DNA of 64,000 nucleotides, taken from the NCBI RefSeq assembly GCF_036365525.1, contig NC_090380.1, forward strand, positions 72,343,757-72,407,756. Reading direction: 5' to 3'. A program made the position numbers and the translations under genes. The stretch's first letter is position 1. The number at the start of each line of letters is the position of its first letter. Below the pieces are notes generated by a model that saw only the letters and a list, made by a program, of their open reading frames with translations, did not search any database and was not told the origin of the DNA. Below are positions 39,853 through 60,258 of this stretch, piece by piece. The DNA is from Heterodontus francisci (Eukaryota).

Positions 39853-40101
39853 TGTGATGAGAAACTTTTTATGCAACATAAATGAGATGCGTGGAGTCCA
39901 GGTTGGTAAAGATCTCAGACAGATTTATTAAACAGCTAAACTATTATACAGTACTGAGCTCACTATTTACAGGATCTGCCTATTGGTGTTACAGTTACAG
40001 AGTGAGATTGGCATGTAGTCACATGACTGCATCCTGGCACGTAGCTCATTAGCATACTAAGATCTTAAAGGGAAATCACTCTTAAAGGTAATCACACAAC
40101 A
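39853..40101 (-). repeat. 3' LTR of myc-carrying element, copy 1
   Basis: 249-bp direct repeat of 42676-42914; AATAAA on the minus strand; abuts the PPT at 40102-40114. Confidence 0.9.
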
Positions 40102-40237
40102 TCCCCCTTCTTTCCAAAGATCAGTTTCATATGCTAAAAGCAAAAATGTATGAAATGAGATAACATCAAAATTATTTACACATGGATAAAGATTATGAAC
40201 TTTACCAATATAGAGGCTCAAAAGTTCATATATCATC

Positions 40238-40700
40238 TCAGTGATTTGACAACTCTTGCTCGGGGAATTTGTGTCTCATCCCTTGCTGTACTTTCTGAAA
40301 TTGCTTCCTCCCTGCATTTGGCTTCTGTTGCTCTGCCTTCAGGCTGCTAATATACTGTGTTGCTTTTCTGAAGATGACCACCTTTGCGGCCTTGGAAAGC
40401 TCTGGCACCTCATCTCGAAGAGCTAACCAACAGTTCTCCAACTCATTCCTCCTCTGCCTCTTCAGGGCATTGCGTGTCCTTCACCTCTCCTCATCCTCCG
40501 GGTCTGAGGGCTTGGGGCTCAAGGTCGAGGAATTGTTGGGGGAGGTGTATTTGGTCTCATGGTGGTACCTGTCTGTTCTGGCTTGTTGTGGTGGTTCTCT
40601 AGAGAGTAGAAGTGAAGGCGCAGCATAGTTGTGCTCTTGCTGGATTTCCAGACTGCACTGTTTGATGCTGGTCAGAGTCTGCGAGCGGGTTTCAGTCCTA
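40238..40700 (-). pseudogene. myc: Myc-family C-terminal fragment (Myc box IV + bHLH-LZ) inside the LTR element
   Basis: Translates IKQCSLEIQQEHNYAAPS...[65 protein letters not shown]...; compare c-Myc HQHNYAAP...[44 protein letters not shown]. Paralogue not resolved. Confidence 0.9.
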
Positions 40701-41936
40701 TTTCCCTTTGGCAATGCTCTCGTGGATGGTTATGATGTTGAGATCCTTACATACTGGTAGCCCTGCCACTGTTGGTCCGCTCGTGTCTACCAGGTAGAAC
40801 GTTTGTGGTTTCCATGCTGACTTGCCATAGCTGCATTGCATTGTTAGAGTGTCACTGCAAGGGATGGGTGAGCCATTGTATACAGATAATTTTGCAGTTG
40901 TTGGTTTTATCATTGTCTTCTAACGACTCCGATACATATATTTGAGGATTCATACTGGTAGAATATTTGCACTAGCGCCCATGTCAATCTTGACCTTGAG
41001 TGTATGTTTGCCAGCTTTCTTTAGGCCCTTGATGTTGATAGTGGCAAAAGCTTCCAGTTGTTTTGACTTCATCAACGTGATGTGTCAGGTTCACAATGTG
41101 GAATGCTTGTTCATCTTCTGTCTGAGAACGGCTTCTCTCTGGGTCTTGTCTCAGGTCTGTTTTGCCATGGATTTCATGTATTGGCTTGCGTTTACGCCAT
41201 TCTCTGGCACTTAACGTGTTACTGTTGCCCTGTTGTCTGTTTGTTTGCATCCGATCGTCTCTTCAGGCTGCATCTTTGGAGATAGAATTCCTGCATATGT
41301 GGGCCAGTGTCCTTTTGCACTGCACACCTTGCACAAGTCACGAAATGTAGGACAGCTTCACCGTGAGTGGGACAGAACGCACTTACCACACAGGTGGCTG
41401 CTCTTTTTGACCTGGTTATTGTTCTGATACCGTTGGCTGCACTTATTGCTTGCAGGTGCTGTTGTCCAGCTACAATGGCTTCGCATTTCCTGCCATCTTC
41501 CAGCAGTGCATGAATGCCGTGACCTTTCTTTTTCCCCCGAAAGGTCTTTCTGAAATGCTCCATTATTCGGTCTGACAGCTCAGCTTCTGAGAAATCACAT
41601 TCGTTGCTCTTACTACAGCATCTGCTGATGAACTGGTCAATTGATTCCCGTGGCTGTTGCCTGTAGGACATCAGTTCCAGGCGGTGAATTCTAAAATTCA
41701 GTCTCAATCGGAGCTGAACTTCCAGCACTTTCCATATCTTTGCAGGATCTTTCTGGTCCTGTTCAGATAATCCAGAGGTATTGATTCTGTGCAATCCTTC
41801 ATTTCCAATCAGCCTGTTTTTCTGGTTCTCTAATTACTTGGTCTGTAAAGCATAATTGCATTCTTTGTTTGAACAATGGGAACTCAGGTAGGATATCCAT
41901 GACCTTTCAGTTCATGCTGGGAAGTTTGGTATCCAT
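40700..41936 (-). pseudogene. Degenerate Gypsy-type gag + aspartic protease, copy 1
   Basis: MDTKLPSMN..LFKQRMQLCF; FRIHRLELMSYRQQPRESIDQFISRC..K..ECDF; knuckle CKVCSAKGHW; protease ID(M)GAS.NILP...YNGSPI...FYLVD. Confidence 0.8.
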
Positions 41937-42660
41937 TTTCCTGCTGTTCGGTTACTTTAAAACATGCTTTAAGACTTTGCTTTATGACTTGCTTTATACT
42001 GCTTTCCCTTTCAAGGAACTCTCGGCTGCTTTGATTGACAGCAGCAGGTGTTTAGCAGTGCTTGTCTGTTTATCTAGCTTCCAACCTCTAGTCTGGCTGT
42101 TTATGCAGCTGTGCAATAGGCACTTCAAGTGCTTTTTAAAAAAGGGTTTGTTTATACAGCCGTTCAAGAGGCAATTCTTTGTGCTTGAGTGGTTTTAATG
42201 TTTTTTAAACTGTGACTGCTGAATGGAAGTTCTTCACGCTAGAGTGATTTAATGGTTTGTTTTTAGCTTTAGCACCGAACTGCTTGAATGGAGGATTCCC
42301 ACGCTTTCATTGTTGGGCGCCTCCTGTAATGGTGGTGATCTGATCAGCCTGGGGGAGGAATCGGGTCTTCCCCACTTTTCTTCTCCTACTGAACCTTTGA
42401 AAAGAATTGATTTTTTTTCCCAAGCACTTCGCAGCTTGTTTTTCTTTAACTGGGGTTCCTATAATGACGGCACACTGACTCACCTGCTCACAGTGACTGA
42501 TTTGCAGCGTGTCATTTAGCTCTGTCTTCTACAGCTGGAGGTGAGTTTTCTTATCTTGTTTACACTGTTTGGGGCAGTGTTCCTTTTAACTTTCTTTTAG
42601 CTGTCGGTAGTTTTTAAAGCTATTTTCCTGTGTTCTTCAATCTTGGATTCTGTCTTCTCA

Positions 42661-42675
42661 CCACGGCTGCCACCA
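42661..42675 (-). promoter_or_regulatory. Primer-binding site complementary to tRNA-Leu
   Basis: TGGTGGCAGCCGTGG directly after the LTR, versus TGGTGGCAGCGGTGG expected from the vertebrate tRNA-Leu(AAG/TAG) 3' end; copy 2 has TGGTGGCAGCTGTGG (51515-51529). Confidence 0.8.
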
Positions 42676-42914
42676 TGTAATGAGAAGCTTTTTATGTTGT
42701 CTGATGCAACATAAATGAGATGCATGGAGTCCAGGTTGTTGAAGCTCTCAACAGGTTTATTAAACAGCTAAACTATTATACAGTGCAGAGCTCACTATTT
42801 ACAGGACCTGCATCTTGGTGTTACAGTTAGAGTGAGACTGGCATGTAGTCACATTAGCTCATTAGCATACTAAGATCTTAAAGGGACATCATCCTTAAAG
42901 GCAATTACACAACA
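42676..42914 (-). repeat. 5' LTR of myc-carrying element, copy 1
   Basis: Direct repeat of 39853-40101; about 19 substitutions plus 3 indels by manual alignment. Confidence 0.9.
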
Positions 42915-45415
42915 TTCTGATAGAACACACATTCACTGCTCTGTTTGCTATGAGCTTGGGCACACGCCACTAAAGAAAAGCAGTCCTGTAATGTTCTGAG
43001 TGGTGCATCTTTTTTTTATGGATAAATATATAAATGAGCAGCAGGCTTCCATATAAAGCTCCCTCTTCTCAAAATAATCCTTTTGGTATTTGCGCTTGGC
43101 CTGCTGACAATTGGCAGTTCTGCAGCCTCAGCGAGCTTATATAAGTTGCATACCATAAAGCGTTTATATTGAAACAATAACTTAATTTTAATGTAGAGCT
43201 TCCCTTACATTAGACTGACTAAAGAGTACACTTTTCAATATCCAAGTTGATTATCATTAACAATGCAGTGAATTTGGAAAATTAATAGTGACGTGTTGAA
43301 TTTGAGAGCATTCCTTTAGGTTCCAATTTCAGCATCCTTCATATCAGCAATGGCAAGGATGGGTTTCTCTTGATAAATGAGCTCTGTAGCACTTTGTTCA
43401 CAATGAGATTAAAGTTATTCAATTCACCCATCCAAAAATAGTGCCATCACTCCTGCTACCTGCTGCTGCCACCATTGGAGGTATCAGCAGAGCTTTTAAT
43501 TGGTTTTTGGCTCACAAGTCAGATTTTGAAATGTGCTGGACCTTATCCTCAAACTCTGTCTATTCAGCTTGAGGCTCTGACTAGGTTCTCGGGTCTACAG
43601 TCAGTTGTGCCAGTGCTCAAAATTAATTACTCTATTCACGCCAACTTTGAACAGATGGTCTGATTAAAAATAAAGTGTGCAAATGAGCCATCTTATTCTA
43701 ATGAGCTTTTACATTTCATCAATCTTTAGCAGGCTTCAGAAGTTTTACACAAATATTATTTTGTTCTCAGTTTTTGAACCTTGTCAACTGGTGAAGATTG
43801 TCAGGGGGTTGGGCTGGATCCTTTTGAAGATTCATAACATGCATATTTTCTAACCTACAACATTTTTAAAATGGATTTTCGATAATTTTTTAATGCAGAT
43901 TATTAAGTTTAAAGACTGAAGTGATATTCTTTTTGCAGCATCTCTGAATATAAAAGATACACATTATCTGAAGAATTACCACTTTGTGACTGAACGTCCT
44001 GCTCTTCCCCTCTCCCCCTTGACATATGCCTCTCACAATCTCAATGCATTATTAGTTGAGAATTTTGAGAAAGTCCCAAAATTTTCAAAGGAAAGTTATA
44101 TTCCATGAGCCCTAGAAATATTATTATTGATGCAAATCACTTGCATCTCCTCCTCTATGTATGATTTTTCAAGTAAGAATTTTGCCCCGCATATCACAGA
44201 TTACCGCCTAGCACAGTAAGGACTTGTTTAATGGAACGAGTGGCTCGCTGTGTAAATTGGATGGAATCATAGGCCCTTTGTTGTTCCATATTTTTATATT
44301 CTTTATCTGTTTCATTCATTTTGTTCTCTTGTGGCTGTAAAACACCAAGGAACATTTTATGTATTAAAGGCTCTTTATAAATGCAAATTGCTGTTCTTCT
44401 GGCTTGTATGAAAACATCATGGGGTTGCAATTGTACAATACCATGAATAATACTGACTTGCATTGGGCACAGGGAATGATTCCTGCAGCAGAATGGGTCA
44501 GCCCAAGGCTCTTAAGTTAGACTGGTGAGCGGCAGATGCCTGCTATGTCTCCCGAGGCAGCCGCTGGCAAGATGCATTTAAACAATTTTTTGGTTTTTAA
44601 TATATAATTTATTTATAAATTTTGTAAAAGTACAGAACAGTTCAAATGTGACATTACATAAAGTGGTTCACGTATTTTGCTTTCACAACAATTTGCATTT
44701 ACGCTTCATTTCAAACATTCACTGATGAATATGACTGTCAAGCAGGCCCCCACCTGCCAAGAATGAGGCATATTAATTTTGTCATATGAACATTGATTTT
44801 ACATTGTTGCTGGGAAGAGGAGAAGGCCTGTGACAAGAGCTGCCAGACACTTGGCTGAAAAACATTTGCATACTAACAGACAGTGTTTGTGGAGACAAAG
44901 GACCATTCCCTGACACATTCAACCCACAATGGATTTTGATCACCAGACCTTGGAGGTGTAAGGAAGGGCATTCCAAAGATTGCTAAGGTGATACAATCCA
45001 CAAAAGCCAGGAGTGGTTAAACCAGCTGGTCACATGACTAACTGACTGGTCCAGAACTTTTTTGAACTGGCCACAGAGTTTTTGAACTGAATAAGACTGT
45101 TAGCTGCTGGAGTGAGAAGACCTCTCCTGTCTGCTCCCATCTCTTTCTCACAAGCCTCTGAACCCACTGAGGACACATGAACTTCAAGAGAGAAGAGTCT
45201 CCTACATCGAACAAGGTTTAAGAAGAATACTGGGCCCCAACCAAAAGCAAGGCCGACCTACAATCAAGGACGTTACTGCGAACTGAAAGAACAGTAACCA
45301 AAACCATCTTCAGATATTGCCTCAAACTTTTCCACTTTATTTCGTCTGCTCTTTTCTGTCTCTTTCTGCATGTGCGTATCGCATATGCATGCTAGCGTCG
45401 GCGTGTCGCACATCC

Positions 45416-46022: not shown

Positions 46023-46366
46023 GGGCGGCACAGTGGCGCAGTGGTTAGCACCACAGCCTCACAGCTCCAGCGACCCGGGTTCAATTCTGGGTACTGCCTG
46101 TGTGGAGTTTGCAAGTTCTCCCTGTGTCTGCGTGGATTTTCTCTGAGTGCTCCGGTTTCCTCCCACAAGCCAAAAGACTTGCAGGTTGGTAGGTAAATTG
46201 GCCATTATAAATTGCCCCTAGTATAGGTAGGTGATAGGGACAGGTGGGGATATGGTAGGAATATGGGATTAGTGTAGGATTAGTATAAATGGGTGGTTGA
46301 TGGTCGGCACAGACTCGGCGGGCCGAAGGGCCTGTTTCAGTGCTGTATCTCTAAACTAAACTAAAA
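46023..46366 (+). mobile_element. HE1-like V-SINE
   Basis: Homologous to 5665-5998; (ctaaa)n tail. Confidence 0.88.
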
Positions 46367-47115
46367 ACTGAAGCTAGTAGCTCCCGAAGACAGGGTGAAG
46401 TAACTTGGGATAAGTTAAAAGCACTGTCCATGGAGGAGTTGAGGAAAATGGCTGAACAGTGTGGGATCACTGTACGTGGCAAGGCTAAGAAGTCTGAATT
46501 CCTAAGGCTAGTGGCCAACCATTTTTCCCTTGAATATGAAGAAGCAGAAATAGGGTTAGAAGTAGACTCCAACAGGGTATTGCTAGCAAAGATACAATTG
46601 GAACAGAGGAAACTTGAATTAGAAGACATGGAAAGAGAAAGAGAGAGACAGGAGAGAGAGAAAAAAAGAGCCTTCCAGAAGGAACACGAAGACAAAAGAG
46701 AGGCAGGAGAAAGAGAGAGAGAGTACCTTCCAGAACGAATGAGAAGAAAGAGAGCTGAAGCGGCTTGAGTTAACTAGGGGGCGACAGAGTACCCCCAGTG
46801 AAAGCATGGCCAAGAAGGAGAAGCATAATTCAGGGTTGTGTACAGAATTGTTAAAACTATCTCAATGTTAAAACTAAAATTTAATGAGGAAGATGTGGAA
46901 GAATTTTTTTGTGTCTTTTGAGAAACTGGCAAGGCAGCTAAAATGCCAGCCTGAGACCTGGCCTCGTTGATTCTAAAGCAAGCTAACCAGAAAAACCCAT
47001 GAGGTTTATACACTGTTTTCAGGTGAGAGTTCATCATATTATGAACTGACAAAAAATGCTATCCTCGGGGCATATGAATTAGTACTTGAAGCCTATCGCC
47101 AAAAGTTTAGAACCT

Positions 47116-47822: not shown

Positions 47823-49112
47823 CCCAAGAAGCAAGCTAATCAAAGTTATCTGGAGTTTGAAAGAAATAAGCAGCTGGCTTTTGACCAGTGGCTGAGGGCT
47901 CTTAAATTACAGCTCAGCTATGAGAATCTCACGGAAGTAATTCTGTTAGAGGAATTTAAACACTCACCAAAAGCAAGACCTACTTACAATCAATGACTTT
48001 ACAGCGAGCATGAAGAACAGTAACTAAAACCATCTTCAGATAGAGTCTCAAATTTTCCACTTTATTTCTTCTGCTCTTTTTGTCTCTAGCTGCATGTGTG
48101 TATCGTGTATGCATGCTAGCTTGGGTGCGTCACGTATTCGTAGGCGTTAACCGAATTAGAGTTTATGTTCTTTTTTCTTTAAACTTAAGAAAACCTGTTT
48201 GGCTAGTTTCTTTGCCTTATAATTGGAAGTTAGGGGACGAGGATTTGCTAAGGGGGAGCTAAAAAAAGTGTGTTTAAAATTAAACCCTGTTACGGTAAGA
48301 TCAGGTGAAGGCTGAGAGGGAACCCTCGACCCCTTTCTCCTCTGGTCATAACAATGACCCAAGGGGTTTTACACAGGTTCTAACCCCTCACTGTGCTATG
48401 GCTGGTGAGGTGGATTTAAACAGTTAAATCTTTGATTTGATTGTGGCAAACAAGTATGTAACAGTAAGATTTCTGGTAAGGGGCACGGGCACCAGGAAAC
48501 ACCAAATTTCTTGGCCTCACAATGGCATGGATCAGCAACCGGCAAGGTCCTGTCATACTATATGAGGATATCCTTGATCTTCTTCTTGGAAGCTTCTTCT
48601 ACATATTTCTGGTGGTATGCCACCAAAGCTTTAGAAATGGATTGATGAACAGCATAGATTTGAGCTACATGAGCACTGCCCTTCACACAAACTCCAATGT
48701 CGACTCAAGGATCGGTGGATTTAAACAATCTTGCTGGAGGGGAAGGTGATTGGGAGAGCGCTAACTGTAGGCCCGCAGTGCTATGTAATGAGTTCTTTTC
48801 TGTTGTCTGATGCAATATAAATGAAATGCATGGAGCCCAGCTGAAGATCTCAAACAGGTTTATTTACAGCTAGCCTATCTTACAGTACAGAGCTAACTAT
48901 TTACAGAACCTTACTCTGGGTGTTACAGTTGCAGAGTAACTCTGGCTTGTAGTCACATGATTACTTATTAGCACACTAAAGGGACATCACTCTTAAAGGC
49001 AATCATACAACATCCTCCTTCTTTCCAAAGATAAGTCTCATATGCTAAAACTAAAAATACATAAAATTAGATAACACCAAAATTATTTACATAGGTATAG
49101 ATATTGTGAAAT

Positions 49113-49640
49113 TTACAAATATAGAGGCTCAAAAGTGCATATATCATTTTGGTGCTTTGACAACTTTTGCTCAGAGAATCTGCATCTCATCTGTTGCTGT
49201 TCTTTCTGAAGTTTCTCCCTCTCTGCATTCAGTTTCTGTTGCTCTGCCTTCAGCCTGCTAACATACCCTGTTGTTTTCTTAAGATAACTATTTTTGAGGC
49301 TTCCTCATTCTTGGAGAGTTCTGGCACCTCATCTCAAAGAGCCAACAGATAATACTTCAACACATTCCTCCTCTGTGTCTTTAGGACATTGTGTGTCCTT
49401 CGCCTTTACTCATCCGCCTGGTCTGAAGGCCTGGGGCTCAGGGTGAAGGACTTGTTGGGGGAGGAGTACTTGGTCTCATGGAGGTACCTGTCTGTTCTGG
49501 CTCGTTGTGGTGCTGGCGGTTCTCTCGAGAGCAGAAGTGAAGGCACGGCATAGTTCTGCTGTTGGTGGGTTTCCAGACTGCACTGTTTGATGTTGATCAG
49601 AGTCTGCGAGTGGGTTCTGGTCCTTGGAGATTTCCCCTTG
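49113..49640 (-). pseudogene. myc: Myc-family C-terminal fragment (Myc box IV + bHLH-LZ), copy 2
   Basis: IKQCSLETHQQQNYAVPS...[53 protein letters not shown](fs)TGYVSRLKAEQQKLNAEREKLQKEQQQM. Confidence 0.9.
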
Positions 49641-50799
49641 GCAATGCTCTCATGGATAGTTATGATGTTGAGGTCCTTACACGCTGGTAGTCCTGCCACC
49701 GCTGCTCCGCTCATGTCTACTAGGTAGAATACTTGTGGTTTCCATACTGACTTGCCATAGCTGCATTGCATTGTTAGAGTGTCACTGCAAGAGATGGGTG
49801 ACCCATTGTATGCAGATAACTTTGCATTTGTTGGTTGTATCATTGATTTCCAACAACTCTGGTACTTATCCTTCAGGATTCGGACTGGTAGGATATTTGC
49901 ACTAACGCCAGTGTCATTCTTGACCCTTACTGTACGTTTGCCAGTTTTCTTCGGGCACGTGATGTTAATGATAGCAAGCTTCCATCAGCGTGTATTAGCT
50001 TGCATTTCCGCAGGTCTCTGGCGCTTTCCTTGCTGCTGTTGCCCTCTGCTGCCCCTGCCTTCTGTTTGTCTGTGTCGTGCTGCAGCTTCAGGCCGTGTCT
50101 TTGGAGACAGATTTCTTGCATAGGCGGGCCCAGTGTCCTTTTGCACTGCATGCCTTGCACAGGTCACGAAATGCAGGGCAATTTTGCCATGAGTGGGACA
50201 GACCCAGACCACACTTAGCACACAGCTTGCTTGCTCATCTTGACCTGGTTATGGTGCAGATACTGTTGACTGCATCTAGTGTTTGCAGGTGCTGTTGTCC
50301 AGCTACAATGGCTTCATACTTCCTGCCATCTTCCAGCAGCACATCATTGCTGTGACCTTTCTTTTTCCCCCAAAAGGTTTATCAGAAACACTTCAGTGGG
50401 CGTCGATACAGTCACTAGCTCCATTATTCTATCTGACAACTCAGTTTCTGAGAAGTCACATTTGTTGCCCTTACTACTGCATTTACTGATGAACTGGTCT
50501 ATTCATTCCTGTGGCTGTTGCCTGTAGGACATCAATTCCAGGTGGTGATTTCTAAAATTCACTCGTTATCGGAGCTGATCTTCCTGCACTTTCCATATTT
50601 GGTCTTCGTCAGGTATTCCAGAGGTGCTGACTCTGTGTAATTTCACATTTTCAACTGCTATCAGAATTTTTACAGCCTGTTTTTCTGGTTCTGCAATCAC
50701 TTGGTTTGTAAAGCGTAACTGAATTCTTTATTTGAACAACTGGAACTCAGATGGGTTATCAATGACCTTCCAGTTCATGCTGGGAAATTTGGTATCCAT
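49640..50799 (-). pseudogene. Degenerate gag + aspartic protease, copy 2
   Basis: Collinear with copy 1; CX2CX4HX4C knuckle near 50118-50159; DTG catalytic motif. Confidence 0.8.
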
Positions 50800-51571
50800 C
50801 TTCCTGCTGTTCTTTTGCTTAAAACTTGCTGTAGGACTGGTTCTATGACTCTGCACTGTTTCCCCTTTAAAAGAACTCTCTGTTATTTAGACTAGCTGCT
50901 TTGATTGACAGAAGCAGGTGTTTACTAGTGCTGTGTGTTTATCTTGCTTCCAGCACTTAAGCCTGTTCTGTTTACATCACTGTTCAATAGGTAGCTTAAT
51001 GCATTTTTTTAGAGTTTTTTAAGGTCTTCACTCGAGAGTGGTTTTAATGTTTTTTTTCCTGTGGCTTCATGAATGGAAGCTCTTATTCACGCTTGAGTAG
51101 TTTCATGTTTTTTTAAACTTTGGCTGTGTAGATGAAGGCTGTGCCATGTTCTGGGTTTTCCCACCTTTTTTCTAATGGACGCTTCCTGTAATCGTGCTGA
51201 CCTCAATCAGCCTGGGAAAGGGGTTGGGTCTTCCCATGTTTTTTTCCTACATGGAACTTTTGAAAAAAAAAACAATCTTTTGAAGGTCTTCAAAGCTTTT
51301 TTTTAAAGCAGTATCCCTCGCTCATCCGCACAAAGACTCACCTGATTTATTCGCAACCTGCTGCTCTGTGCTCTGTCTTATACAGCTTGAGGTAAGTTCT
51401 TTTTTCAATATTTGAGCCAGTATTTTTCTTGAACTTTCTCCCTGCTGGCTATAGGAAAGGTAGTTTTCAGAGCTGTTTTAACTGTGGTTTTCAATCTCAG
51501 ACTGTGTCTTTTCACCACAGCTGCCACCATGTAATGAGTTCTTTTATGTTGTCTGATACAACGTAAATGAG

Positions 51572-52331
51572 GGCTGGAATTTTATGGCCCCCCAACGAAT
51601 GGGCTGGTGGTGGGGGGTGCCGAAAAATTGCGTGCAGCGCGGTAGGTGGGGGGAGCCATTCCCAACGCCTTCCCACCTCCACTGCAATTTTATACGTGGT
51701 GGGTGTGGCGAGAAACGGCCCGCCCACTCTGGACCAATGAAGGCCCTTATGTGGCCAATTAACTGCCACTTAAGGGCCTCCTCCCACCGCTGCTGGTATT
51801 TTACCCACAGCTGGATGGCAAAGGCCCCAAGAACCCCGCCTGATAAAACCAGGCGGCCTTCTTGTGGGCTGGGGATGGGCCCACCTGATCAGACCCCATG
51901 TGCCCCACGGGGGAGGGGGGGGGCCAGTCGCAAAGCCCCAACCGCCCCATCACACAACATTCCCCACCAAGTACCCCCCCCCCCTCCCCCGACTTTGCCT
52001 CACTGGGGCCCGGCCAATTATTCCCGGCAAGGCTCCAAAAACTTACCTGTCTTCCGGGGCCGTCCTTCACCTTCTGATGGCTGGGTGTAGTCCCAGCAGT
52101 GACCACAGCACCCGATGGCACTGCTGGGACAAAGATCTGCCGGCCGCTGATTGGCTGGCAGCCCCATTAGGCGGGACTTCCTGCCTCAAGGAGTTGGGTC
52201 CCACCCAAGACCAATTAAAGGCCTGGGGAGCAAAAAATCCCGGCATGGCTCCCCAGGCCCGGCAGAGGCGGGCTCACCACCGACTTTTCAGCTGGTGGGC
52301 AGGGTTTCCCGCCCAATGTAAAATTCCAGCC
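51572..52331 (-). mobile_element. PIF/Harbinger-like MITE inserted in the 5' LTR of copy 2
   Basis: Perfect 13-bp TIR GGCTGGAATTTTA / TAAAATTCCAGCC; 3-bp TSD GAG (51569-51571 / 52332-52334); LTR sequence resumes after it. Confidence 0.85.
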
Positions 52332-53382
52332 GAGTTGCCTGGAGTCCAGTTGGTTGAAGATCTCAAACAGGTTTATTTACAGCCAGACTATTATACAGTA
52401 CAGAGCTAACTATTTACAGAACCTTAGTCTGGGTATTACAGCTGCAGAGTGATGCTGGCTTGGAGTCACATGACCACGTCCTGGTACTTAGCTCATTAGC
52501 ATACTAAGATCTTAAAGGGACATCACTCTTAAAGGCAATCATATGACATGGTCTTCGAACTCCTTTTTAAAAAGTACCTTTTTTGTGATGGCGCCAGACA
52601 TTTTTTAAAGATTTCGTGTTAGGCCACTCATGACATTGTTATCATGATGCAAAATACCCATTCTGCACAGTGCAGCCCAATTTCAGGAAGTGATCCTGAA
52701 ACAGGCATTAGGCACTCTAGCTGCATATGCAAAAAACCCTAATGCTTATTTCTGCCTTTAGCCCTGAACACCGATATTTCAGTCTTTACCAGTGTGGTGG
52801 CCAGCTCACTTTCACCCGCCATATTGGACACTTAGGAACCAGTTTTACATCTGTAAAATGGGTGCACCCTCAACAGTTTCTAGGCCCATGAGTTGTCTAA
52901 CACAAGAAAACGTGAACATGAAAAATACATTTGGTCCATCAAGTTTGTTCCTCACTCAGAACATGTACAAATTCCGTATCTTGGGCATTAACCAGCCCAG
53001 CATATATCCCTCAAAAGTAAATCTCAAAACATAACACACAGCATTTGCATAGGCTGGTGGAATTATATTCTATATAACGCTGTGGGTGAAATTTTACAAC
53101 TTAGCGCCACTGGCGCGGTTTAGCGCATGCTGAAAAATGGTCCATGTTGCGATTGGATGTTGTGAATACCATGTCCACACTCCTATGAAGCCATGCATTA
53201 GACCATTGATCACTATTGGTCGAAAGCTGAATTGAATACATTCAGGGAGACTTTGAAGTGTATGATCTGATGATGCAAGGCTTGCATACAGAGAGCAAGC
53301 ATGTGCTTTGCTGATCATCCAAGCTTGACTGGATTCAGTGTGAAATCAAAGTTGCCATTAATCTGAAGGTTTATGAGGCAGT

Positions 53383-56602: not shown

Positions 56603-57127
56603 CGCTGTTTCACATCGCCTCAAGCCCAGACCAGTTCAGTTTTTAAATTCAGGGTACCACTTATTTTTAATAATATTTTTTTTCATTTTTCCTTTTCCTT
56701 GTAATCACCACACCACATAGATCATCACCAAAGAATCAGTGAGCCAACATGAATTGTGAATAGCTGGAATTTCAATGTTATTTGAAAGGGGGATTAACAT
56801 TTATGTTTCCAGAATTAGAGTTTGAAGCCATTAGTTCTTTTTTCCATTCCTCTCATTTTTAGGTTTGCCTTATGAGGTTTATTTACAATACTTCACTTGA
56901 ATAAAGTTATCTTCTGATATTCTCGCTCCATGTGGAGAGCTATTTCTATTTACACTCATGCAATTGCAGCACAGCTCTCAGAATTGTTTTTGTCACGTGC
57001 AAACATGTAGTTCCTGAAATCACACTTTAATTGCTGTCTGTATAGCCCTGTTATTTTCCAGTTGTGAAGTTGATTGAGACAGAAGAGTAAGAGTCAGACA
57101 TTTGTGATGGCTATCATGCATTCAATG

Positions 57128-58485
57128 ATTCATTGATCTCACCAAAGCCTTTGACCTCGTCAGCAGACGTGGTCTCTTCAGACTACTAGAAAAGATCGGA
57201 TGTCCACCAAAGCTACTAAGTATCATCACTTCATTCCATGACAATATGAAAGGCACAATTCAACATGGTGGCTCCTCATCAGAGCCCTTTCCTATCCTGA
57301 GTGGCGTGAAACATGGCTGTGTTCTCGCACCCACACTTTTTGGGATTTTCTTCTCCCTGCTGCTTTCACATGCGTTCAAGTCCTCTGAAGAAGGAATTTC
57401 CCTCCACGCAAGATCAGGGGGCAGGTTGTTCAACCTTGCCCGTCTAAGAGCGAAGTCCAAAATACGGAAAGTCCTCATCAGGGAACTCCTCTTTGCTGAC
57501 GATGCTGCTTTAACATCTCACACTGAAGAGTGCCTGCAGGGTCTCATCGACAGGTTTGCGGCTGCCTGCAATGAATTTGGCCTAACCATCAGCCTCAAGA
57601 AAATGAACATCATGGGGCAGGACGTCAGAAATGTTCCATCCATCAATATTGGCGACCACGCTCTGGAAGTGGTTCAAGAGTTCACCTACCTAGGCTCAAC
57701 TATCACCAGTAACCTGTCTCTAGATGCAGAAATCAACAAGCGCATGGGAAAGGCTTCCACTGCTATGTCCAGACTGGCCAAGAGAGTGTGGGAAAATGGC
57801 ACACTGACACGGAACACAAAAGTCCGAGTGTATCAGGCCTGTGTCCTCAGTACCTTGCTCTATGGCAGCGAGGCCTGGACAACGTATGCCAGCCAAGAGC
57901 GACGTCTCAATTCATTCCATCTTCGCTGCCTCCGGAGAATCCTTGGCATCAGGTGGCAGGACCGTATCTCCAACACAGAAGTCCTCGAGGCGGCCAACAT
58001 CCCCAGCTTGTACACACTACTGAGTCAGCGGCACTTGAGATGGCTTGGCCATGTGAGCCGCATGGAAGATGGCAGGATCCCCAAAGACACATTGTACAGC
58101 GAGCTCGCCACTGGTATCAGACCCACCGGCCGTCCACGTCTCCGCTTTAAAGACGTCTGCAAACGCGACATGAAATCCTGTGACATTGATCACAAGTCGT
58201 GGGAGTCAGTTGCCAGCGTTCGCCAGAGCTGGCGGGCAGCCATAAAGACAGGGATAAAATGTGGCGAGTCGAAGAGACTTAGTAGTTGGCAGGAAAAAAG
58301 ACAGAGGCGCAAGGGGAGAGCCAACTGTGCAACAGCCCCGACAAACAAATTTCTCTGCAGCACCTGTGGAAGAGCCTGTCACTCTAGAATTGGCCTTTAT
58401 AGCCACTCCAGGCGCTGCTTCACAAACCACTGACCACCTCCAGGCGCGTATCCATTGTGTCTCAATATAACGAGGCCCAAAAGAA
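57128..58485 (+). mobile_element. RTE LINE, 5'-truncated, with open 395-aa ORF (57246-58433)
   Basis: Near-identical to 35648-36986; starts at the FIDLTKAFD motif. Confidence 0.92.
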
Positions 58486-60258
58486 TCATGCATTCCTCAA
58501 TAAAGCTCCTGTGATTGCTCAGTGAGTTTGACCAAGAGGAGCAGGCCAATTTGCTCTTCATCCAAACTAATTTATGATGCATTTACAACATATGTTTTCA
58601 CACTGACTCTAAACTTCTGCATTGTAAATTAGCTATCAAGGTCCAAATTGACCCAAATGCAAAATGGAATGAGACTTCCTTCTCACAGAGACTCAAATTG
58701 CTCAGTCCTGACTTTGAGTTCAAGCTGCATTTCTAATTGCAGTGTCAGTGCCAAGCGAAACCAGTCATAACTAGAATTCAGACAGTTGTGGTGTGAATGT
58801 ACCCAAGGCAGATTTCAACCAGGCATGTAGTAAGGATATCACAACTGGCCTTAACACCCCTTATTTTCAAATGGGAAGTCAGTTATGGTTTATCCAGTGA
58901 CTCTTGCTGCGAAGTGCGTGCGCATGCACATGTGTGTGTGAGAGAGAGACACACAGGTAGGTTTGGACAGGATTGAACTTGGCTGCATTGCTACCCACAG
59001 TAAAGTAGCTGTCAATATTCACAGCAAGGGTTTACACATGAAGAACAATCACTTGCTTGTGGGTGCCAGCAGCAACTGTTCTCCAGCAAGGTGTTAGGCA
59101 TCTTCAGGAGGAGAGACAAGAACATTGGCCAGAGGAAGAAAGTGTATTCCTTACTACCTTTAGGTCAACCACTTGAAGACAGAACCTTATGTTAGATTGA
59201 AGTGGTATTTACATCAGGGAGAAACCTGTGCACCACTCACAAAGTTTGATCGAGCAGAATTTGGCATCTATTTTATTTTTTAAAAAGCCAGCATCAAAAT
59301 TGCATTTATATGGGTTGAATTTCTGAAAGCATTTTTCTAATCGTCTGCTGTAACTTTGCAAAAGACCCAGGGAAACCCCAGAGAAACAGTGTAAACCCAC
59401 ACAGAAATTCAGCCACAGTGTTCTTCACATCATCACAAAGTTGATTGTCACGCAATAGGATACTTCCTCCTCTAAGCAACATAACAGCTACCCCAATCCA
59501 ATTGCCAGTGAGCTCAGATCCATGGCACGAAGTTACACAAAATGGCACATTAGTTATCAACAAATTGGAAGTCAATCTTTTATAGCAGCACTTCATATAT
59601 TTCTATTAATTTATCAACTGTTGTAATAAAATACTCTTAATTCCTCAAATAAACCCATCTTAAAAGGATTATGCTAGCTGTTTTCTAATTATGATCAATC
59701 CTTCGTACTTGTTACAAATTGTAATCCTATTCTGTCTAAAAGCTTAATGGTAAGTGCACTCTGGGTATGGTGTCAGAGCAGAAAGTCCCAGGTTCCTAGT
59801 CTGTGCAGTTAGATGACCTCAGCCAGGACTCCATACAAAGCACTAAAGATAGTATTATGCCCCTGGACAATAGAGGAAAAATTCTAATTGTTGTGTAGTG
59901 ACTGCTGGCAAGTGCAATAGTGTGGGCCTTGGGTAAGGACAGTGTCTCGCTGTCCTATAACTGCCCATTGTGTTTAAATAGTACACCAATACTTGCTGCC
60001 TAGATTGACATGTGAAGAATGCCTTGTTGGGTGAGGTCTCAGATGGTGGTTGGTGTTGATGGAATCCTATCCCAACGAGAGTTCCTACCATCAGAAGAGA
60101 AGAGAAACTTGGGGTGGGCAGGGGATGGGGGATGGGAGATTGTGGGTAGGAAAGAGGGAGGGAAGCAAAATTCAGATTTAAGTGCTTTGCATGTGTGGAT
60201 TGCATTTGGGAAATATCCTATCTTCTAACTATATACATATATAAATTCATCTTTTCAG

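Follow-up and report, generated by a model that had tools for sequence, protein, structure and literature searches.

A mych fragment carried in frame by a Gypsy-type LTR element of the horn shark, and the early replacement of its E-box-reading glutamate

The DNA considered here (the window) is a stretch of 64,000 nucleotides from the horn shark Heterodontus francisci, whose genome comprises 6.0 Gb, and it holds two decayed Myc-like pieces on its minus strand. As had been noticed from the letters alone, both pieces read AAG (Lys) at the codon that aligns with the invariant Glu of HNVLERQRR, which is GAG in the host donor gene and is also found in human MYC (PDB 1NKP); alignment to the donor confirms that the two copies differ in their stops and frameshifts. 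The original prediction went on to propose that the Lys was ancestral to a spreading element, and that its cargo, lacking a transactivation domain, might have been a Max sponge, that is a natural dominant-negative Myc, or might have been defused. The locus raises the question of what kind of element carries a Myc fragment, whether the Lys was there from the beginning and what the change did to the fragment.

Both copies are organised as LTR elements (Table 1), with TG...CA repeats of about 240 nt, a primer-binding site, a polypurine tract, broken gag and protease regions and the Myc piece. Neither reverse transcriptase (RT) nor integrase was found in either window element, and the gag and protease pieces matched no Pfam family. 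Copy 1 is flanked by a near-perfect 5-bp target duplication (CAGAA/CAGAC); such duplications are clear in several further copies and decayed in others. The LTR pairs are separated by a K2P distance of 0.083 in copy 1 (230 nt compared) and 0.104 in copy 2 (187 nt compared). Nucleotide identity to host mych over 474 nt is 83% for the first cargo, which bears private deletions of 5, 6 and 9 nt and a CpG-type stop, and 89% for the second. The long open frame of copy 2 is direct evidence of an in-frame fusion of protease and mych.

Table 1. Positions of the two elements and of their parts in the window
Feature	Positions	Strand	Remarks
Copy 1, gag-pro-mych LTR element, short form	39853..42914	-	3.06 kb
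Copy 1 5' LTR, TG...CA	42676..42914	-	
Copy 1 primer-binding site core, just inside 5' LTR	42666..42675	-	which we take to be tRNA-Leu-like
Copy 1 broken gag with Cys/His knuckles	41050..41936, bounds approximate	-	six-frame reading; same region in RT-bearing parent family
Copy 1 broken aspartic protease, in frame with cargo	40720..41040	-	D-x-G near 40982, motif read by eye
Copy 1 mych cargo (last exon: box IV region, NLS-type motif, basic-HLH-zipper)	40266..40719	-	
Copy 1 CGC (Arg) at E-box His (host H286, MYC H359)	40472..40474	-	
Copy 1 AAG (Lys) at E-box Glu (host E290, MYC E363)	40460..40462	-	
Copy 1 polypurine tract	40102..40115	-	
Copy 1 3' LTR	39853..40101	-	holds GTCATGTGAC E-box-type site at 40018-40027
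Copy 2 of element, short form	48784..52548	-	
Copy 2 5' LTR	51530..52548	-	interrupted by 759-nt GC-rich insert 51573-52331
Copy 2 open frame, 192 codons, protease into mych cargo	49406..49984	-	best database match: host Mych
Copy 2 mych cargo	49177..49649	-	89% identical to host exon; own stops and 1-nt deletion in HLH
Copy 2 AAG (Lys) at E-box Glu	49379..49381	-	
Copy 2 CAC (His kept) at E-box His	49391-49393	-	
Copy 2 3' LTR	48784..49012	-	polypurine tract 49013-49026 before it

The insert in the 5' LTR of copy 2 is bounded by short inverted sequences (GGCTGGAATTTTA...TAAAATTCCAGCC), with the flanking GA duplicated, and looks like a small element of DNA-transposon type, its relatives among the loci compared being only 67-79% alike. 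The GTCATGTGAC site, of E-box/M-box type, is also present at 52465-52474 in the LTR, and a further such 10-mer lies outside the element at 45029-45038. Elsewhere in the window there is a 137-codon frame on the minus strand (46355-46768, with tandem repeats at 46633-46754), which we take to resemble the N-terminus of an unrelated Gypsy gag. Dense nested LINE fragments in both orientations occupy 13400-38300 and 57100-58500; judging by their motifs they are presumably CR1/L2-like and RTE-like, and two of the RTE-like copies show 97% identity over a length of 300 nt. Scans of the window with Rfam and ARAGORN gave no match.

On the basis of domain order and motifs, the element is assigned to the non-autonomous Ty3/Gypsy LTR type. 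Its order is LTR-gag-protease-cargo-LTR, the cargo standing where a parent family has RT-RNase H-integrase. This parent family is represented by 317 exact matches to a 5'-junction pattern built to exclude the mych side (two mych-type rows occur among the 100 listed of the 317). In most of the 30 parent loci read, the frame continues into RT, whose motifs come right after the shared junction; the parent has gag, protease, RT, RNase H and integrase in that order within a single frame. Towards the 3' end, three of the four parent stretches read contain RNase H and the zinc finger and core of integrase, then the shared tail and LTR, the fourth being interrupted by other repeats; the parent domain motifs were read by eye. 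No env was found, the integrase tail reaching the LTR directly in three of these four stretches.

In the long copies, 191 nt from the end of mych exon 2 run exactly into the start of exon 3 and the 1.7-kb intron is gone, from which it follows that the template was mRNA. The cargo starts at Mych residue 121 or later, i.e. downstream of boxes I-II. At the capture points, parent and donor have identical stretches of 7 nt (5' switch) and 6 nt (3' switch) that stand in the same reading frame, so that both switch points have microsimilarity, and there is no poly(A). A Gypsy retrotransposon co-packaged mych mRNA of its host, and two template switches at these short shared sequences replaced RT-RNase H-integrase by the 3' half of mych. 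The resulting element would rely on an intact parent for RT and integrase and would keep exchanging gag-pro with it. Consistent with this, parent sequences are found scattered among those of every Myc-bearing class when 114 rows are placed in a gag-pro tree, as expected for a helper recombining with its probable dependent.

The donor is mych, and the identical horn-shark protein (P0001) is named 'myelocytomatosis oncogene homolog' at NCBI. A Myc_N scan gave three intact paralogues, myc, mycn and mych, and no mycl among the 119 scored of 1624 candidates. The DNA-level match is to mych alone, which rules out c-myc, mycn and mycl as donors, and horn-shark-specific residues are common to host mych and the window copies. 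Host mych is an intact three-part gene with its intron, Myc boxes I-II and the His/Glu pair, whereas the cargo of the element is a fragment. Regarding taxonomic reach, five element-derived database proteins cluster with horn-shark Mych in the protein tree (support 64/90, not starred), and holding host Mych with four other galeomorph orthologues is rejected by the AU test (p=0.039). No element-like protein from another shark appears among the 120 listed of 1377 matches. Contigs from two other organisms span the whole element: in one of them contigs bridge the junction, and in the second all 30 bins are covered and no listed contig bridges the junction under a 31-letter rule. Taken together, the tree, the AU test, the protein matches and these contigs indicate that the capture probably took place on the horn-shark stem, before the split from those two organisms.

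At least six decayed copies (P0007-P0011, P0021) are mislabelled by NCBI as 'N-myc proto-oncogene protein-like' or 'myc proto-oncogene protein-like' genes, and the models P0008 and P0010 even include protease residues; the element accounts for such false 'N-myc-like' genes in the annotated horn-shark genome. Besides, in the Mych model of Scyliorhinus torazame (P0004) some 22 residues are repeated internally, up to the point where the basic region begins; this duplication may be an artefact of the assembly.

The DNA search returned 3349 candidate loci (40 scored), and a 34-nt pattern across the short protease-mych junction is present, with up to 2 mismatches, in at least 731 copies (control 0). 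In total 170 non-redundant copies were read (149 first and 21 added), picked by similarity, family score or codon pattern, and the sizes of the classes do not stand for genome frequencies. An older, longer form keeps the acidic EEEIDVV box; mid and short forms are derived by 5' deletions of 129 and 378 nt. All dated copies are old, with LTR pairs 0.08-0.19 apart (32 pairs kept), the long forms being older than the short ones (mean 0.145, n=11, vs 0.119, n=13; P=0.005). No substitution rate was found in the literature to turn this divergence into years. The commonest stops are three CpG-type CGA-to-TGA changes, which point to decay after insertion.

The distance from protease to cargo is in frame in 61 of the 65 short copies scored (71 examined), in 14 of 20 mid copies (25 examined) and in 22 of 42 long copies (44 examined). 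Off-frame long copies carry private indels at scattered positions; a frameshifted long sub-lineage (offset 134) was also considered and rejected, because the 1-nt gaps lie at scattered places. All four frame-setting junctions, namely both capture points and the 129- and 378-nt 5' deletions, are in frame, a result with a chance of about 1 in 80 at one third each, and copy-private indels of at least 10 nt are in frame in 37 of 132 cases. In the long form the frame stays open into the pol tail. Deletions located after the zipper (169-nt; 4+22-nt) shift the frame and alter the last residues only; tail deletions are mixed, and the first of them could not be sized. The four in-frame junctions suggest translation through the cargo, which on this reading of the frames was probably translated, and they do not give the reason for which the frame was kept. 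Constraint on gag and protease was set aside as proof of the element's translation, since parents interleave with the element.

Concerning the Glu codon, a set of 31 copies selected for their similarity at DNA level, window copy 1 among them, has no GAG, 22 AAG and 5 AGG. Genome-wide, exact 29-mers were counted 425 times with AAG, 74 times with AGG and 32 times with GAG (one of them the host gene), and backwards-read controls gave 0. Glu is thus kept in 31 of 530 exact-pattern copies (5.8%), so that most copies retaining Glu, which would have spoken against the original prediction, is not what the genome contains. These few copies are nevertheless informative about the history of the family. 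Among 29 Glu-pattern copies there are 21 with the long tail and 6 with the short one, vs 3 and 37 among 50 Lys-pattern copies (Fisher P=3e-9), and most of the Glu copies also retain the His. Of 76 copies picked blind to the codon, 24 belong to the old class, with Lys in 17 and Glu in 4, and 31 to the short class, with Lys in 22 and Glu in none. The tie between Glu and the older long-tail structure implies that the element first spread with Glu, and it is the ground on which back-mutation was rejected as the main source of the Glu copies; some short-form Glu copies are probably back-mutations, because the neighbouring A-to-G variant is also common (74). That Arg variant, AGG at the same codon, is more than twice as frequent as the Glu class and could reflect either a sub-lineage or a mutational hot spot. 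As read from these sequences, the element started out with an intact His and Glu, and an early sweep of Lys preceded its main expansion. The ancestry proposed for the Lys is correct for most copies, where it predates the insertions, and does not extend to the family, whose Glu copies have the older structure. Since G-to-A is the likeliest mutation at this Glu codon, the Lys itself carries little information.

Selection on the cargo was approached with measures that are all pairwise or per site. A comparison of 20 copies of the His/Glu class with 71 of the short class gives a net dN/dS of 0.16 (0.05-0.39) for gag, 0.35 (0.11-0.87) for protease and 0.90 (CI 0.38-2.63) for the cargo, the last value being inflated by a class defined partly by Glu. 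It comes close to the value near 1 that had been named beforehand as contrary to a selected function, and the cargo appears to be under no clear purifying selection overall. Over 156 shared codons, 12 non-CpG changes rose in the family, 10 of them amino-acid changes and 2 silent (P=0.25 vs neutral); M252, one of the 10 sites, may be a change on the host branch. Six of the 10 (host I227, P238, K248, H286, E290 and L354) fall at positions whose conservation across 114 Myc-family proteins is 90% or more, vs 28% expected (P=0.034), and 2 of the 10 are exactly the His and the Glu (P=0.009; His given Glu, P=0.06), counts that are small and tests that were made after seeing the data. The six span box IV, a motif aligned with the c-Myc NLS, both base-reading residues and a zipper leucine; the names 'Myc box IV' and 'NLS' are those that we presume to apply to these motifs.

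The E290 change rose first; the others, at 4-20% or up to 30% in the old classes, reach 71-93% in the short one. Within the P-K-R-A-R motif, aligned with the c-Myc NLS, the Lys is changed in 93% of the 71 short copies and in 9-17% of the old ones; the invariant zipper leucine is changed in 86% of the short copies and the E-box His in 80%. The most abundant form has a proline-containing tail in place of the last zipper heptad. In the HLH no amino-acid change is fixed over 39 codons, and its dN/dS in the short class, 0.69 (0.50-0.97), is the only one of 8 region-by-class intervals that excludes 1; that of the zipper, with its invariant Leu changed, is 1.01. Intermediate-frequency variants are 11 amino-acid changing to 10 silent in the cargo vs 7 to 22 in gag and protease (Fisher P=0.07). 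With respect to the domains, the absence of the transactivation domain holds, Myc boxes 0-II being missing in every form seen, and the supposed conservation of HLH and zipper holds for the HLH core only, as later changes hit the invariant zipper leucine.

Several studies describe what changes at these residues do in related proteins. According to bioRxiv 10.1101/2020.05.04.076190, H359 and E363 of MYC make base contacts, and the H359A/E363A protein (MYC-HEA) binds Max, cannot read the E-box and is dominant negative solely on over-expression. Of all substitutions at the equivalent site of E47, Glu-to-Lys (E555K) has the strongest dominant-negative effect according to PMC11286708, and in PMC7780693 repression by Omomyc, a Myc bHLH-zipper without transactivation domain, is weaker when its DNA-binding residues are mutated. 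Since the captured piece was without boxes 0-II from the start, with Glu it would already have been an Omomyc-like E-box blocker, and by analogy the loss of Glu may have weakened it as such; from the E47 result, the same change may have sharpened the fragment instead of blunting it.

Among the readings of these data, the one ranked above the rest, tentatively and with somewhat less than an even chance, is that of a translated passenger which was progressively disarmed. From a single gag-protease-Mych-tail frame, a Mych bHLH-zipper without transactivation domain would be made wherever the element is expressed; with His and Glu, the piece could pair with Max and occupy E-boxes without activating them, and such occupancy would harm dividing germ cells or pull the polyprotein into the nucleus. 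Lineages with an open frame (perhaps for RNA stability) but a blunted passenger would then leave more copies, Glu being lost first and then the His, the box IV residues, the NLS-type lysine and the zipper leucine, with the acidic box and the last zipper heptad trimmed alongside. This reading draws on the order of the changes by structural class, the 4/4 frames, the excess at conserved sites and the MYC-HEA and Omomyc results; the near-neutral 10 to 2 ratio, the HLH without fixed change and with dN/dS of 0.69, and the E47 result count against it. It is also conceivable, if rather unlikely, that the cargo was mere filler between protease and 3' LTR and that a G-to-A change in an early master copy rode the amplification, followed in the same manner by the later changes. 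Such neutral hitchhiking agrees with the net cargo dN/dS of 0.90, close to the 0.84-0.92 found within classes, and with the 10 to 2 ratio; the in-frame capture is a matter of where microhomologies happen to fall, and the purifying signal of gag and protease may be imported by recombination, given the interleaving parents. It has more difficulty with four frame-setting junctions out of four in frame, with the enrichment at conserved sites and with the 11 to 10 ratio of intermediate-frequency cargo variants, where about 70% amino-acid changes would be expected (P=0.07).

The selected dominant negative, in which the protease would free a Mych bHLH-zipper whose E-box-blind dimers sequester Max, lower germ or embryonic Myc output and favour transposition, is considered improbable. 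The early and leading position of Lys (17 vs 4 Glu in the codon-blind old class) would suit it, and so would the frame maintained through the loss of all that lay upstream of the bHLH region, the HLH without fixed change and with a within-class dN/dS of 0.69, the coincidence of both changed residues with those of MYC-HEA, which reportedly retains Max binding, and the strength reported for E47 E555K. A nuclear Max sponge would, however, need both the NLS-type lysine and the zipper leucine, which the commonest form has lost together with its last heptad; the cargo is under no overall constraint, MYC-HEA is described as dominant negative only if over-expressed, and a retrotransposon has no known benefit from low Myc. 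A bolder version, with an E-box-blind Max trap created by an E47-type Glu-to-Lys change and a germ-line Myc effect that drove the spread to thousands of copies, is equally doubtful; if true, the trap would be the anti-oncogene counterpart of v-myc. Least probable is an escape from self-repression, whereby Mych/Max with His and Glu and without transactivation domain would shut the element and its helper at an E-box-type site of the LTR, so that Glu loss would raise copy number. CATGTG is a secondary Myc/Max site; 148 of the 201 LTR matches have this core, with every class represented, and so do the 3/3 parent LTRs read. Nevertheless its flanks (TCATGTGA) are of the MITF/TFE/USF type, which we take to be disfavoured by Myc/Max, and the binding is a prediction. 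Returning to the progressive disarming of the passenger, the Lys is most likely a disarming change and not a working dominant negative. Of the alternatives originally offered for the cargo, the defused one fits better, and the natural dominant negative is disfavoured by a dN/dS of about 1 and by the NLS-type and zipper changes.

The mechanism of capture is already known, and what appears to be new from these sequences is a Myc-family cargo amplified on this scale by an LTR element without env. No report of a high-copy in-frame gag-pro-myc retrotransposon was found in the literature, and the element may be catalogued as a repeat in Repbase or Dfam. In the germ line of a vertebrate, a Gypsy element has taken up a proto-oncogene fragment in frame, after the manner of v-myc, and has multiplied it by a factor of at least 731; its datable series of intermediates is a natural experiment on whether a selfish element keeps, blunts or ignores a host transcription-factor domain. 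As far as the accessible text of Tan et al. 2016 (PMC5131818) goes, LTR-mediated retrocopies of animals arise through template-switch capture and known LTR gene capture gives few-copy retrocopies. The mych element resembles these, and maize Bs1, in having a spliced piece of host mRNA in sense orientation inside a discontinuous LTR element, and its 7 and 6 nt at the switches compare with the 5-10 nt of microsimilarity given in the same text for both switches. It departs from them in its stepwise series of forms and its in-frame fusion with gag-pro and the pol tail, and also in copy number, at least 731 vs 1-5 for Bs1 (PMC5131818). Regarding the protein, the cargo is like MYC-HEA, E47 E555K and the Omomyc-type antagonists in that the same base-reading residues are changed in a piece without transactivation domain; those are engineered or disease alleles with measured activity, whereas the mych cargo is a fossil passenger, known from sequence, with further losses of NLS-type and zipper residues. 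Acutely transforming gag-myc retroviruses such as MC29 have a defective LTR genome in which spliced myc exons, fused to gag, take the place of pol, and they depend on a helper. The horn-shark element shares with this type the Myc-family exons that replace pol in frame with gag and, probably, the dependence on a helper. Unlike MC29, it is a Gypsy element with no env seen, it is fixed in the germ line, its donor is mych, the transactivation half is missing instead of kept, and it has lost DNA reading instead of gaining oncogenicity.
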